NCBI GenBank assembly: GCA_014297435.1
Contig: JACOQA010000004.1
Span: 1 to 64,000, forward strand
Direction: 5' to 3'
Length of the DNA: 64,000 nucleotides
From: Candidatus Nanohaloarchaea archaeon
GTDB lineage: Archaea > Nanohalarchaeota > Nanosalinia > Nanosalinales > Nanosalinaceae
A program made the position numbers and the translations under genes. The notes beneath the pieces were generated by a model, which did no database searches, was not told the origin of the DNA, and saw only the letters and a list, made by a program, of their open reading frames with translations. Below, in pieces: positions 10,756-30,414 of the stretch. Position 1 is the stretch's first letter, and each line of letters begins with the position of its first letter.

Positions 10756-10864
10756 TGCGGCGTCGGGGATTTGAACCCCGGTTACGACCACTCTGCCCTT
10801 CAGAGAGCGTCTGGCTCTCGTTCTGGATGGCAAGGTCGTGTCTTAGCCACTGGACCAACGCCGC
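10756..10864 (-). tRNA. tRNA-Gly(GCC) with 37-nt canonical 37/38 intron (10791-10827)
   Basis: Cloverleaf GCGGCGT/ACGCCGC, anticodon arm CGACC-TTGCCA|intron|T-GGTCG, T-loop GTTCAAATC; BHB helix TTGC/GCAG. Confidence 0.93.
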
Positions 10865-19466: not shown

Positions 19467-19572
19467 GGGCCCGTAGCTCAGCCCGGACAGACTCTTGGGT
19501 CTACGAGCTTGGGAGGTCTACAGCGAGCGGCTTCGGACCGCTAGGTCCAGGGTTCAAATCCCTGCGGGTCCG
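19467..19572 (+). tRNA. tRNA-Arg(TCG) with 31-nt non-canonical D-arm intron (19491-19521, position 22/23)
   Basis: Acceptor GGGCCCG/CGGGTCC, anticodon arm AGCGG-CTTCGGA-CCGCT; removing 19491-19521 restores the GCTC/GAGC D-stem; BHB helix GGAC/GTCT with 3-nt bulges AG|A and AC|A. Confidence 0.9.
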
Positions 19573-27062: not shown

Positions 27063-27347
27063 GTGAGCGATAACAGGTCGATGGCGGTTACGGAAGAACA
27101 GGATGTTAATGAGCTAGATCAAGTTAAGCAGAAGTTGAGATCTGACGCAGCTACAGTGAAGGATATGCCTGAATGGTCAGACGACCAGGTGAGAGTTCTT
27201 TCCTATACTATGTATGAAGATGTGGGCGAATTTGAGGCACTAGGAACTGTCCGTTTAGAAGTGTATAGAGACTACTTTCTGGCCAGAGGCGACGAATATC
27301 TTCTAGAGGATTACTTCAGGCGTTCTGAGATCGCCGGTTCATGCTGA
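27063..27347 (+). CDS. Hypothetical protein
   Basis: 94-aa acidic ORF. Confidence 0.6.
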   Translation: MSDNRSMAVTEEQDVNELDQVKQKLRSDAATVKDMPEWSDDQVRVLSYTMYEDVGEFEALGTVRLEVYRDYFLARGDEYLLEDYFRRSEIAGSC

Positions 27348-27617
27348 TGGACCTTTGAACTTTCCTTCTTCCTCATTTTCTGTGTCTGCGAACACTTGTT
27401 CCTTTGAAAGACTTTCTTCTTTGCTGTCTTCTCTAGTTTCTGTCCCAGTATCTATTGGATGGAATGCTGGCTCAACGTCATCTGTATCAACCTCATCAAG
27501 TTTTTCAAACGTTGATAGAATGTTTTCGAATTCTTCTGCGAACTTTTCGGCTTCTCCCACGTTTAGATTGATTCTGGCGTTATCGGCCACTTCCTTAACA
27601 TCGTCGGTTGATACCAT
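27339..27617 (-). CDS. gatC: Amidotransferase subunit C
   Basis: DVKEVADNARINL...LDEVDTDDVEP...RED...FKGP. Confidence 0.93.
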   Translation of the reverse strand: MVSTDDVKEVADNARINLNVGEAEKFAEEFENILSTFEKLDEVDTDDVEPAFHPIDTGTETREDSKEESLSKEQVFADTENEEEGKFKGPSA

Positions 27618-27804
27618 AGTCAATGATTGTTTCTGAAGTTTTTTGAATCCGGTCTGTTACCTTTGGATGAAGTCCTAGAATCAGTTATTTTCGATAACAT
27701 GAACAGTCATAAACGATTGTGAACTATGCCTGTTCATCGCCAGCGAACACCGAACATAGCACCGAAAAAGGCAAACATTTATAAACTAGTCTTAGAAATG
27801 TTAG

Positions 27805-27954
27805 TTTAGTTCAGAACATTCGTCTTTGGGCGGACGAAATGTGAACGAACTGAATCATATACAACTCGTTTGGGCACGAGTTCAATCATGTCGGATTCGA
27901 CTTGGGCGTTGAATCCATTCACGCGTTTGGGCAAACACGTATTTGGGCAAGTAT
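27805..27954 (+). ncRNA. Array of five hairpins carrying TTGGGC (leader RNA or sRNA) upstream of ftsZ
   Basis: TTGGGC at 27826, 27870, 27902, 27927, 27943, each flanked by a different complementary stem; TATA TTTATAAA at about 27778. Confidence 0.75.
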
Positions 27955-28065
27955 CTATCTTCTATCGTAGGATTAGGTATCGCGGTTTAAAAAGATTAGG
28001 TTTACCGCTGCCAAAGCTTACACAACACCACTTACATCACATGATGATCAAGAGCTGATAATTGG

Positions 28066-29130
28066 ATGGAATCCATAATAAACAATTCAGAATCCGGAAA
28101 AGACACCGAAAACCTCGACGACGTAAAGGATGCTAGAATCCTGGTAGTCGGTGCAGGAGGAGCCGGAAACAACCAGGTAACACGAATACAGAAAAAAGAC
28201 GTACAAGGAGCAGACACAGTAGCAATCAACACAGACAAACAACACTTAGAAATGTCCTCCGCCGACAGAAAAATCCTCGTAGGTCGCGACCTAACAAAAG
28301 GACTCGGCGCAGGAGGACAACCCGAAAAAGGAGCAAGAGCAGCAGAAGAAAACCGCGCAGAACTCCGCAGCCTGTTCAAAGACGCAGACATGGTCTTCCT
28401 AACCGCAGGTATGGGAGGAGGAACAGGAACAGGAGTGACACCAGTCCTCGCAGAAATAGCAAAGAAGGAAGATTGTATTGTTATCGGAACAGTAACCATG
28501 CCTTTCGAAATTGAAGGCGCAAGAATGTCAAAAGCCGAAGAAGGACTATACAGGTTGAGAAAACACGTTGACACTGCAATCGTAATCGAAAACGACAAAC
28601 TACTTGATATTGCGGGCGACATGCCTCTCGATCAAGCCTTCGGTGTCGCGGACGAGCTGATCACCACCATGATAAAAGGCGTAACAGAAACAATCTCGAA
28701 ACCTTCACTCGTAAACCTAGACTACGCAGACGTCCAAGCAATCATGAACGAAGGAGGAGTCGCAGTCGTAGGATACGGAGAATCAGACACAAACAACAAA
28801 GGAGAAGAAGCAATCCATGAAGCACTCTCCAACCCACTACTCGATGTAGAGTTTGATGGAGCAAACGGAGCACTCATGCACGTAGCAGGAGGAACCGACC
28901 TCACACTCAACGAGATCAACGACGTAGGTCAGACAGTCAAAGAAAGACTTGATTCAAGAGCTCAGGTAATCTGGGGTGCAAGAGTCAAGGAAGAACTTGA
29001 GGGCAAGATCCAAGTGATCTCGATCATCACAGGGGTAGAATCACCTTATGTACTTGGAGAGGTCGATGAGCAGCAGGAATCAGAAGTAAAAGGCGATGTC
29101 AACGACCTAGGACTGGAGGTTATCGAGTAA
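28066..29130 (+). CDS. ftsZ: Cell division protein FtsZ (FtsZ2-like)
   Basis: GGAGNN, AINTDKQHL, GMGGGTGTG tubulin signature, NLDYAD, C-terminal GLEVIE. Confidence 0.97.
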   Translation: MESIINNSESGKDTENLDDVKDARILVVGAGGAGNNQVTRIQKKDVQGADTVAINTDKQHLEMSSADRKILVGRDLTKGLGAGGQPEKGARAAEENRAELRSLFKDADMVFLTAGMGGGTGTGVTPVLAEIAKKEDCIVIGTVTMPFEIEGARMSKAEEGLYRLRKHVDTAIVIENDKLLDIAGDMPLDQAFGVADELITTMIKGVTETISKPSLVNLDYADVQAIMNEGGVAVVGYGESDTNNKGEEAIHEALSNPLLDVEFDGANGALMHVAGGTDLTLNEINDVGQTVKERLDSRAQVIWGARVKEELEGKIQVISIITGVESPYVLGEVDEQQESEVKGDVNDLGLEVIE

Positions 29131-29190
29131 CTCTCGATACCTCTCTTTCACATCATATTTTCCCCCCTACATATTCACATTATGCTTTCA

Positions 29191-29302
29191 AAGGAAGAAA
29201 GGATCCTCCCGTTAGAGAACCGTCGGGGACACAAAAATCCTGACGGCTCTCGACCCAACACTCCCCTCCCCCCTTTCACACGCGGAGGCATCCTTTCACC
29301 TT
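29191..29302. ncRNA. Candidate ~110-nt structured RNA element downstream of ftsZ
   Basis: Outer stem GAAAGGAT-CCTCC/GGAGG-C-ATCCTTTC, inner hairpin GAGAACCGTCGGG/CCTGACGGCTCTC, unpaired C-rich tract. Confidence 0.55.
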
Positions 29303-29358
29303 ATTTATTTTCCAACAATTCGAAAGAAGTAAAAGAATTCTAAACATTAATTAGAAGC

Positions 29359-29862
29359 GTGAGAAACCAAAAATTCTACATTTACTCTCTCGGAGCAGTT
29401 TTATTATCGATTTTTACAGGTCTCCTGGCGTTTAGAGAGTTATTTCTTCCTGCAGGAGCGATTGGACTAGGATTACTAGGATTTAGATACATGGCTTCGA
29501 GGGAAGGGAACAGATCAGGAAGAACTGATAAAATGAAGCTAACAAAATCCCTTTCCGAGAACATTTCCGAGGTTATTGTTATTTCAAGCGTCCTAATCTC
29601 AGGTCTTGTAGGCAAGACCATCATACTTGGCTTGTTTGCAGCCCTTTGTATTGAAAAGGCTTATATGGGCGACCTGAAGAACAGAGTTCTCAGAATAATG
29701 AGCCTTAGATTCGGATCGGATCTAAGAATTCTTCTAGCTTCTCTGATTCTTCTTGCCTCTCAGTTTAATCCTCACTCGGCGTTCTGGGGGTCGATTCTGC
29801 TGGCATCAACCGTGTTCTACGACACGACCTATCTAGTGTATTCGGGTTTCAGTGAGGCGTGA
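29359..29862 (+). CDS. Membrane protein (possibly degenerate CDP-alcohol phosphotransferase-like)
   Basis: 167 aa, 5-6 TM; the DGxxAR motif is not intact. Confidence 0.6.
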   Translation: MRNQKFYIYSLGAVLLSIFTGLLAFRELFLPAGAIGLGLLGFRYMASREGNRSGRTDKMKLTKSLSENISEVIVISSVLISGLVGKTIILGLFAALCIEKAYMGDLKNRVLRIMSLRFGSDLRILLASLILLASQFNPHSAFWGSILLASTVFYDTTYLVYSGFSEA

Positions 29863-29907: not shown

Positions 29908-30414
29908 ATGAAGGCTCCAATTTGTAACGTATGCTTGAAGAGTTCTGACGAGCTCTGCAGCATGTGCGAAGACAAGCTAGAAGACGGTGATATCACCGAG
30001 ACTGATATCAAAATCACCAGAATACTGTACGACCTTTCGAAGGAATACTCCTCTCTCAAGGATTCAGAGATCGTTAAGGTATTTGAGATGGAGAAAGTTA
30101 TAGTTATAGTTACTGCGGAAGGTGACGGCGCAAAAGTCGTCGGAAGAAGCGGCGAAATTGTGAAAGAAGTTGCTTCTGAAGTAGATAAATCCATTCGAGT
30201 TGTCGAAAAGGCTGAAGACGACATGGACACAATCAAAGGACTTCTAAGTCCTGCAGAAGTAGAGTCGATCAACACAGTCTTCATGCCTGAAGGAAAGTCG
30301 AAGAAGATCGTTGTCGACGACGAGTACACCGGCAAGATCAACCTATCGGTCGAGGAGTTCGAGGAGATTATCAAGGAAATCACCGACACGCCTTACAAGC
30401 TGTCGTTCGAATAA
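29908..30414 (+). CDS. Archaeal NusA-like KH-domain protein with Zn knuckle
   Basis: MKAPICNVC...LCSMC; VVGRSGEIVKEV KH GxxG. Confidence 0.85.
   Translation: MKAPICNVCLKSSDELCSMCEDKLEDGDITETDIKITRILYDLSKEYSSLKDSEIVKVFEMEKVIVIVTAEGDGAKVVGRSGEIVKEVASEVDKSIRVVEKAEDDMDTIKGLLSPAEVESINTVFMPEGKSKKIVVDDEYTGKINLSVEEFEEIIKEITDTPYKLSFE

Follow-up and report, generated by a model that had tools for sequence, protein, structure and literature searches.

Regulatory RNAs in which a constant loop is presented on differing stems are known from both bacteria and eukaryotes. Here, we describe an array of this design, built around five copies of TTGGGC (UUGGGC in RNA), which lies directly 5' of an ftsZ gene that we place in the FtsZ2 type, in the genome of a Candidatus Nanohaloarchaea archaeon. 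Throughout, the window means the whole analysed stretch of 64,000 nucleotides (nt), positions 1 to 64,000 of contig JACOQA010000004.1. We consider the iron-responsive element (IRE) to be the nearest analogue in logic, as it too has a constant hexaloop on variable stems, occurs singly or in arrays of five in an untranslated region (UTR), and is read by a protein that acts on translation from the 5' UTR or on stability from the 3' UTR. However, the IRE is eukaryotic and has another loop and a conserved bulged C; homology is not implied, and beyond a scan of Rfam the comparison is one by description. CsrB and RsmZ, protein-titrating small RNAs (sRNAs) with a multi-hairpin, identical-loop design, share with the array their multiple hairpins on unrelated stems, the same G-rich motif in each loop and the extra copies in a weaker or single-stranded context. 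These bacterial sRNAs act in trans, have their own terminators and carry GGA in the loop, whereas the array exposes (UU)GGGC at one fixed place 5' of a single gene, with no oligo-T terminator after it. The guanidine-II (mini-ykkC) RNAs resemble the array in placing small hairpins in tandem immediately 5' of the regulated gene, with loops that are conserved and stems that covary, but they have two hairpins with self-pairing ACGR tetraloops and bind a small ligand, whereas the array has three to six sites and a loop that is not self-complementary. To our knowledge, few cis-regulatory RNAs have been described in archaea and none for cell division, and a full-text literature search found no cis-regulatory RNA for archaeal cell division.

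For the gene itself, the closest known arrangement is the cdrS-ftsZ2 operon, present in Euryarchaeota and other archaea, in which cdrS is the usual regulator 5' of ftsZ2; it is described in the available text of PMC7439475, where cdrS is given as detected in all archaeal clades except DPANN. The array occupies the same slot directly 5' of the same gene, in which two outgroup genomes have an RHH_1 open reading frame (ORF); CdrS, however, is a DNA-binding protein acting on transcription, whereas here the slot holds what appears to be a non-coding structured leader. A possible way of reading the loop is illustrated by the RRM-like domain of the helicase Hera, which in the available text of PMC3695512 binds single-stranded GGGPyr next to a duplex, so that a small domain of this kind can read an exposed GGGC beside a duplex. 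Hera differs in being a bacterial helicase that binds many RNAs, and the DbpA domain (PF03880), which is related to Hera's, was not found in the window genome.

The hairpin array and its distribution

The array lies in an intergenic gap of 442 nt (27624-28065) between two divergent genes, gatC on the minus strand (27339-27623; TIGR00135) and ftsZ on the plus strand (28066-29130, ATG at 28066; TIGR00065, 395.6 bits). TTGGGC occurs on the plus strand at 27826, 27870, 27902, 27927 and 27943, with spacings of 44, 32, 25 and 16 nt between successive copies, and this cluster (27826-27948) holds five of the 12 copies found on both strands of the window. The hexamer is not enriched window-wide (12 copies versus a dinucleotide-shuffle mean of 16.3), and the signal is its clustering. 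An earlier note on this DNA had described five TTGGGC within inverted repeats of differing sequence, and its coordinates and arms are confirmed here.

All five hairpins are on the plus strand. H1 (27819-27838) has a stem of 7 base pairs (bp), TTCGTCT (27819-27825) with GGACGAA (27832-27838), around a UUGGGC hexaloop (27826-27831), and is lengthened in the window genome by an outer helix (27809-27813 with 27842-27846). H2 (27863-27882), the most sequence-conserved hairpin, has a 7-bp stem, AACTCGT (27863-27869) with ACGAGTT (27876-27882), and the same hexaloop at 27870-27875. The 9-bp stem of H3 (27893-27916) consists of GGATTCGAC (27893-27901) and GTTGAATCC (27908-27916), includes one G-U pair and again closes a UUGGGC hexaloop (27902-27907). 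Within the window genome, the stem sequences of H1-H3 are unrelated to one another. In H4 and H5 the two U of the motif are paired with AA in the stem, leaving GGGC as an apical tetraloop. H4 (27921-27940), the position of which is variable among relatives, has a weak GUUU/AAAC stem (27925-27936) with three outer pairs and its GGGC at 27929-27932. H5 (27939-27954) is a 6-bp alternative stem, GUAUUU/AAGUAU with two G-U pairs, that exposes GGGC at 27945-27948, overlaps the outer pairs of H4 and has a mean unpaired loop probability of 0.31 in the fold of the whole leader.

Across the genome (998,768 bp, both strands) 143 TTGGGC were found, three of which are flanked by stems of at least 5 bp (7, 7 and 9 bp); all three are in this array, and the next best stem around any genomic copy has 4 bp. 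A looser scan, accepting stems of at least 5 bp and loops of 4-8 nt with GGGC, GGGA or UGGCG, gave 748 hairpins in 2.0 megabases (both strands), among which the ftsZ2 array was the sole cluster with a uniform loop. The hairpin array is far from chance.

A blastn search with the whole gap gave matches in 12 of the 24 other family genomes and in none of 16 from other families. Each family match has the same order: the TTTATAAA box, about 40 nt, three TTGGGC-loop hairpins, one or two more TTGGGC, a TTCTAAGGTAGAATTA-like box, the TTTAAAAAGGTTAGGT box, an AGGnTGAT-like site and the ftsZ start. An exact-pattern scan for the H2 hairpin in 185,579 species genomes returned 30 stretches. Of these, 22 are in Nanohaloarchaea, Nanohalarchaeota or uncultured-archaeon records, all with TATA 5', an ftsZ start 3' and 4-6 TTGGG[CA], and the eight others are bacterial, have one or two motifs without an ftsZ start and serve as chance controls. 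The wider distribution, missed by blastn in the other families, was found only by reading the regions upstream of FtsZ2 orthologues directly. When the upstream regions of the closer FtsZ paralogue were read in 23 further genomes, the same design was present in all five families of the phylum that were covered, with a loop that varies by genome (UUGGGC, CGGGCA, CUGGGCA, GUGGGA, UUGGGA, and UUGGCG in the sole f5 genome).

After removal of duplicates, the collection comprised 45 distinct leaders (f1 32, f3 7, f4 4, f2 1 and f5 1). All 45 have 2-6 hairpins (stem of at least 5 bp) with GGGC, GGGA or UGGCG in the loop, whereas mononucleotide shuffles of each leader average 0.07-0.52 such hairpins, with 3 as the highest count. 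Additionally, 21 of the 23 distinct canonical sequences were used to make a covariance model (R1), L020 and L022 being omitted because of insertions. The model matched 36 of 70 phylum genomes, once in each apart from G053, which has two matches on two contigs, each with a piece of ftsZ2; as R1 was made from members of the UUGGGC type and misses the CGGGCA, GGGA and GGCG forms, the 34 unmatched genomes are not absences. For 36 of the 37 matches, an ftsZ2 match follows about 100-260 nt downstream; for the remaining one (G061), the contig ends about 330 nt away. To judge from these leaders, the array is kept across the phylum Nanohaloarchaeota, and possibly more widely.

Rfam 15 gave no match in the window at gathering score besides three transfer RNAs (tRNAs) elsewhere. 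At E up to 10, the gap gave three chance-level matches (14-15.7 bits versus gathering scores of 37-100), none of them to Csr or Rsm, and 17 related loci (43,539 bases) gave no match. The Rfam check that had been proposed for this locus thus turned up no known family, and no description of such an element was found in a full-text literature search in which most subscription journals were not covered. The array is apparently an undescribed structured RNA.

Covariation of the stems and the transcribed strand

Pairing was assessed by two comparisons with relatives. The first, a loop-anchored test, compared the 8 nt 5' and the 8 nt 3' of the loop, gapless and with no stem alignment, in 32 family leaders with a stem of at least 4 bp. 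For H1, 28 distinct sequences were 89.7% paired, versus 49.8 +/- 4.4% (maximum 65.6%) when the 3' arms were shuffled. The five loop-proximal pairs of H1 were paired in 139 of 140 cells, each with 3 to 4 Watson-Crick pair types. The corresponding values were 90.6% versus 64.0% for H2 (24 distinct sequences, one row of which, L003, is really its H3, misassigned by the position cut-off) and 100% versus 83.5% for H3 (10 distinct sequences). The closing pair is not conserved in this comparison, unlike the loop.

For the second comparison, R1 was searched over 57 loci, giving alignment A3 with 42 rows, 34 of them distinct. In A3, 96.1% of 741 cells were paired versus 75.3% in shuffles, both-sided changes were seen in 18 of 23 pairs (7/7 in H1 and 8/9 in H3), and 158 compensatory cells were counted versus 47 when shuffled. 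None of 500 shuffles matched the observed percentage paired, number of compensatory pairs, number of compensatory cells or covariation score, and 11 of 500 did so for further pair types, although A3 was fitted to the model and its sequences are related, so that these shuffle statistics overstate independence. The loop-anchored test is free of the model-fitting weakness. With slid partners, pairing in A3 fell to 20-46%. Of the 34 distinct rows, 23 close the H2 stem with U-G and five with U-A.

The strand is marked by the G-U pairs. In the loop-anchored test, G-U exceeded A-C by 45 to 10 cells in total (19 v 6 in H1, 21 v 4 in H2 and 5 v 0 in H3), and this excess marks the plus strand because a G-U pair would be an A-C mismatch on the other strand. 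Within the window itself, the closing U-G of H1 and the inner G-U of H3 pair on the plus strand only, and in the first 12 relatives all TTGGGC of the array are on the ftsZ strand. The earlier note had argued from variable stems and a constant loop for RNA rather than a DNA repeat and had called for a covariation check; the compensatory stem changes across relatives, with the loop constant, and the G-U bias to the plus strand show this to be so. We are nearly certain that the array is a structured RNA.

Proposed role in ftsZ2 expression and alternative explanations

In all 45 leaders, the conserved array, with its compensatory changes and on the sense strand, lies between the putative promoter and the ftsZ2 start codon, as would be expected of a cis-regulatory 5' leader structure. 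The distal TATA box TTTATAAA (27778-27785, plus strand), the predicted promoter P1 of the leader, is invariant (T7-A14) in 13 of 13 aligned leaders, and TTTATA[AT]A is found 5' of the array in 42 of 45. The usual distance from TATA to the start in archaea is about 26 nt. From this distance, transcription is predicted to start at the T-A at 27807-27808 (plus strand), 22-23 nt past the box, where T36 is invariant and A37 is present in at least 90% (alignment A1). The conserved TATA and T-A fit the earlier proposal that a TATA near 27778 puts the start by the first stem. The loop of H1 begins 44-66 nt after TATA in 31 of 32 family leaders.

In the explanation that we favour, transcription from the distal promoter (TATA 27778-27785, start near 27808) would give ftsZ2 messenger RNA (mRNA) a 5' leader of about 258 nt. 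H1-H3, as stable hairpins, and between one and three weaker sites would each expose UUGGGC or GGGC, and the conserved box, the A-rich box and the Shine-Dalgarno-like site would follow 3' of them. Most likely, a single kind of RNA-binding protein would dock on the loops, in several copies or through several domains, reading the loop and not the stem, and the occupancy of the loops would set the translation or lifetime of the ftsZ2 message; the effect could be on translation, decay or elongation. A multivalent reader of an exposed short sequence is suggested because the loop is constant while the stems and the closing pair drift, and because there are 3-6 copies at variable spacing. The simplest candidate would be a multimeric or multidomain RNA-binding protein. 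For the full statement, i.e. a long structured 5' leader of ftsZ2 with repeated loops on which an RNA-binding protein docks, we consider the chances to be evenly balanced. For the more limited statement, a cis-acting leader is probable, and a separate RNA keeps a small but real share of the likelihood.

A leader is favoured because no oligo-T terminator lies between the array and ftsZ2: archaeal intrinsic termination needs oligo-T tracts, and a run of at least five T follows the last motif in 0/45 leaders and occurs anywhere in the transcribed part in 4/45. Further, the Shine-Dalgarno-like GAGCUGAU (28052-28059, plus strand), a putative ribosome-binding site 6 nt 5' of the ATG that aligns with sites of the AGGnUGAU(C) type in 12 relatives, would imply a leadered mRNA.

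Within the array, a further helix is possible (CGAGUUC with GGAUUCG; 27876-27899), in which the 3' arm of H2 and the linker join the 5' arm of H3. It can reach at least 6 bp in 20 of 23 canonical leaders, as compared with 1/23 in the corresponding H1/H2 control and an average of about 4.3 bp in shuffled sequences. Such a helix would explain why the sequences of H2 and H3 are conserved while H1 drifts, and is a hint of a switch; it may represent a second conformation of the leader, or may simply follow from palindromic words in the arms of related sequences.

Several observations weigh against the protein-read leader, in addition to the limits of A3. The folding energy of 27795-27965 is unremarkable on the plus strand (z -1.26, with -3.0 on the minus strand); since energy alone does not single out the plus strand, both the RNA nature of the array and its strand are argued from the comparison with relatives. 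The A-rich box is conserved and, in four families, lies 45-61 nt 5' of the ATG, a distance appropriate for an internal promoter; were ftsZ2 transcribed from there, most of its mRNA might lack the array. Whole-leader folds gave no pairing of the array with the ribosome-binding site to explain an action over about 110-150 nt, and no candidate reader protein was identified. In some lineages beyond the phylum the repeated motif is mostly outside hairpins, which fits a single-strand reader and weakens the hairpin argument there.

The A-rich box is also where the strongest alternative begins. In this alternative, the distal promoter would give a separate RNA of about 150-200 nt, a sponge or other trans-acting RNA, and ftsZ2 would be transcribed from the box at 27986-27993. 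The box, UUUAAAAA (with the TATA-like TTTAAAAA; plus strand) followed by GAUUAGGU, is conserved in the family, and the second TATA-like box noted earlier near 27986 is real. Its conservation extends phylum-wide: in the 13 leaders from outside the family, which represent four families, it is 45-61 nt from the ATG, and a short leader starting from it would keep the ribosome-binding site. Two roles are possible for the box, as an internal promoter (P2) or as a hairpin loop within the leader. The stem around it, tested in the loop-anchored manner in 28 distinct family sequences, was 71.4% paired versus 67.0 +/- 1.2% when shuffled, with the maximum of the shuffles equal to the observed value. One position of this stem covaries (A-U 11, G-C 5 and G-U 6 of 28), and minimum-free-energy folds of 36 leaders place the box in two different registers. 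In other families it is enclosed by helices of 6-10 bp, a count made without a control. A-rich boxes followed by TTTCG are visible in f3 and f4 leaders, in the form TAAAA-N1-4-TTTYG. The box is often bordered by complementary arms, which are fully different between families and hint at RNA pairing; arms of differing sequence include AATCGAAATG/CATTTCGATT, CCCACC/GGTGGG and GCTACC/GGTAGT (L126, L132, L138 and others). In G074, the box starts as little as 29 nt before the ATG and a GGAGG site lies in between, so that here it cannot be the promoter of a message that uses GGAGG.

The multi-hairpin, identical-loop design of the array is that of CsrB and RsmZ, and the earlier note had accordingly offered a CsrB-like sponge sRNA as one half of its proposal. 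A sponge is not supported, because the covariance model finds one locus per genome and no gene for CsrA was found: PF02599 had 0 matches in the 99%-complete genome, with E. coli, B. subtilis and T. maritima as positive controls. The scan for stem-UUGGGC-stem targets that the note had also suggested found no such hairpin outside the array, and hence no other site in the genome from which to draw a protein, although single-stranded GGGC sites elsewhere could be other targets. In addition, the array is always oriented with ftsZ2 and directly 5' of it, and the oligo-T tract expected of a separate RNA is lacking after the array. Together with the position of the box in G074, this makes a separate RNA unlikely, and of the two halves of the earlier proposal the cell-division leader is the better reading.

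In a further alternative, which we regard as rather unlikely, the loops would not be read by a protein but act by RNA-RNA pairing, with GCCCA(A) in a tRNA, a ribosomal RNA or an sRNA, or by sensing a ligand in the manner of guanidine-II, whose architecture of tandem hairpins, conserved loops and covarying stems is that of the array. Both tRNA-Lys genes, tRNA-Lys(CUU) and tRNA-Lys(UUU) (aragorn positions 100187-100262 and 124441-124516 in the genome contigs), have 3' ends in GCCCAA, the exact complement of the loop. However, the GCCC of a tRNA is in the acceptor stem and paired in the mature molecule, and GGGC is a common tRNA 5' start; the complementarity is probably a coincidence. Loop-loop dimers of the guanidine-II type are excluded as UUGGGC is not self-pairing, the first 12 leaders have no GCCCAA inside them on the plus strand, and the genome holds only pairs of GCCCAA within 200 nt, four on the minus strand. 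The difference of the loop between lineages (GGGC, GGGA, GGCG and CGGCA) would also be unexpected for a conserved RNA partner.

The array might instead be a passive stability or processing element, in which 5'-proximal hairpins shield ftsZ2 mRNA from 5'-end-dependent decay with no reader of the loop. Hairpins at the 5' end stabilise mRNAs in many prokaryotes, and H1 would start about 10 nt into the predicted transcript. Pure stabilisers need no loop conservation, whereas here the loop is the most conserved part, the stems drift and the motif is repeated 3-6 times, and we hold this explanation to be improbable. A DNA-level element, i.e. TTGGGC as transcription-factor sites or an origin-like repeat, could account for the location between divergent genes and for the plain direct repeats without hairpins in some out-of-phylum lineages (G118 and G129), but it is very improbable: the flanking repeats differ within a genome and covary between genomes around a constant, asymmetric centre, which is the opposite of a dimeric operator, the excess of G-U over A-C marks one transcribed strand, and all copies have the same orientation, starting just past a TATA box. 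That the gap codes for a small protein, e.g. a diverged cdrS, is hardly credible, since its ORFs of 62 amino acids (aa; plus strand, 27870-28058) and 42 aa (minus strand, 27806-27934) have no Pfam match at E <=1, 10 of 45 leaders have no plus-strand ORF of at least 30 aa while ORF positions and lengths differ in the rest, the five motifs are in different reading frames, and the RHH_1 matches of the genome sit at four loci other than the ftsZ2 gap.

As a covariation-rich RNA kept across a phylum of obligate symbionts, in the slot where other archaea keep cdrS, the probable protein-read or otherwise acting leader offers a six-base mutable loop, an RNA bait with which to find the reader protein and to ask how minimal cells time division. 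The loop motif shifts by lineage while the design stays, and a partner would therefore be findable by co-variation across genomes.

Beyond the phylum and neighbouring features

The out-of-phylum survey covered regions upstream of FtsZ2-like genes in 16 genomes of the same domain and 16 loci from the order of G074 (G074 included), together 31 distinct loci. Several small genomes (0.4-1.2 megabases) have arrays of one GGC-containing motif between a TTTATATA box and the ATG of the FtsZ2-like gene. These arrays were seen among L109-L116 and L125-L140 (G074, G085, G089, G097, G108, G115, G117, G118, G124, G127 and G129), with UUGGCG among their motifs. G085 and G108 have GCGGGC in 5-6 copies; G074 has (U)CGGCA(A) in five copies, of which two are carried by 11-bp stems that differ in sequence; G097 has three copies of GGGCA and G089 two copies of UUUUGGCGAAC, in both cases in hairpins; and G118 and G129 have six copies of YCGGGCU, mostly outside hairpins. 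In a shuffle test, a GC-rich 5-mer was repeated at least three times at p <=0.01 in 10 of 31 loci (nine of the GGC type and one CCCCC), and 21 of 31 failed. A box of the form TAAAA-N(1-4)-TTTYG is present within 600 nt upstream in 18 of the 31 loci, in a few of them far upstream. Taken from these comparisons, the array design may be older than the phylum.

A more tentative idea, possible but to us rather less than likely, is that the array belongs to an ancient post-transcriptional control of ftsZ2 common to several small-genome archaeal lineages lacking CdrS, in which 3-6 exposed GGC-core motifs (UUGGGC, GUGGGA, UUGGCG, CGGGCU, GCGGGC and CGGCAA, by lineage) and a conserved A-rich hairpin are read by an RNA-binding protein that co-evolves with the loop. 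If true, such control could allow a cell that depends on a host to couple its division to a signal, e.g. the nutrient supply from the host. Two further loci, L123 and L124 (G094 and G070), have a short FtsZ2-like leader with three tandem (T)ATTCAC words between the TTTATATA box and GGAGG, perhaps another means of regulating this gene.

The assignment of the window FtsZ follows from comparison of paralogues. A protein search found two FtsZ paralogues in nearly every genome, 70-91% and about 50% identical to the window FtsZ. The window FtsZ is the more divergent paralogue of its own genome, with 348 bits against FtsZ homolog 1 of M. jannaschii as compared with 418 bits for the paralogue on contig C8, and it scores below the C8 paralogue against bacterial FtsZ as well. 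Its nearest relatives outside the phylum are 52-60% identical, versus 48-50% for the in-genome paralogue, and two of them, in G076 and G093, have a small RHH_1 ORF (53-58 aa) directly 5', the cdrS-ftsZ2 arrangement. We infer that the gene is of the FtsZ2 type from the paralogue scores and because its closest out-of-phylum relatives include these two genes preceded by an RHH_1 ORF, in line with the earlier reading of the downstream gene as ftsZ2-like. A Pfam search of the ORFs in the gap (27624-28065), for which G076 and G093 were positive controls, detected no cdrS-like ORF; the earlier note had likewise seen no cdrS, and this agrees with what the available text of PMC7439475 gives for DPANN. 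For the other paralogue, which is of the FtsZ1 type and located on contig C8, a TATA box is present about 55 nt 5' of the ATG, and the upstream region in the window genome has no GGGC-type hairpins.

Upstream of the leader, TGAACA/TGTTCA boxes at 27700-27705 and 27731-27736, with TGTGAAC at 27718-27724, form a candidate operator for a DNA-binding regulator. At least two TGAACA/TGTTCA hexamers lie within 110 nt 5' of TATA in 26 of 42 leaders that start with TATA, a count made with no shuffle control, and in relatives the boxes often occur as TGAACAGTnnTGAACAGT, with an 11-nt period. They resemble an operator, and the promoter under control would be that of ftsZ2 (or gatC). The conserved box UUCUAUCGUAGGAUUA (27960-27975, plus strand), located between array and A-rich box, would form a small hairpin, UUCUA/UAGRA; T189-A193, G199 and T202-A204 are invariant in A1, and RNAalifold pairs columns 218-222 with 226-230, with no both-sided change. 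The linkers between the hairpins (27850-27856 and 27884-27888) often carry CUGAU(C) or GAUC words, ACTGAATC here and CTGATC or CAGATC in many relatives. A C/D box sRNA was considered and rejected for the region of the ribosome-binding site: the sR33 match at 28037-28087 (15.4 bits versus a gathering score of 37, E 1.1) overlaps that region and the ATG, and the boxes of AUGAUGA...CUGA at 28041-28058 are 8 nt apart, over the ribosome-binding site.

Downstream of ftsZ2, a 53-aa ORF (29182-29343) and a 167-aa hydrophobic ORF (29359-29862), neither with a Pfam or NCBIfam family, precede a gene for a zinc-ribbon and KH_5 (NusA-like KH) protein (29908-30414), two genes 3' of ftsZ2. The KH_5 gene is syntenic within the family wherever the locus reaches far enough, and was not found within 1.5 kilobases in the other four families or in 16 loci of another order. 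As a reader of the loops it was set aside, the synteny being restricted to the family and neighbourhood not being evidence, and it is at best a weak lead. Elsewhere in the window, the tRNA matches at 10756-10864 (minus strand) and 19467-19572 (plus strand) span 109 and 106 nt versus a model of 71 positions, which suggests that these two tRNA genes contain introns.

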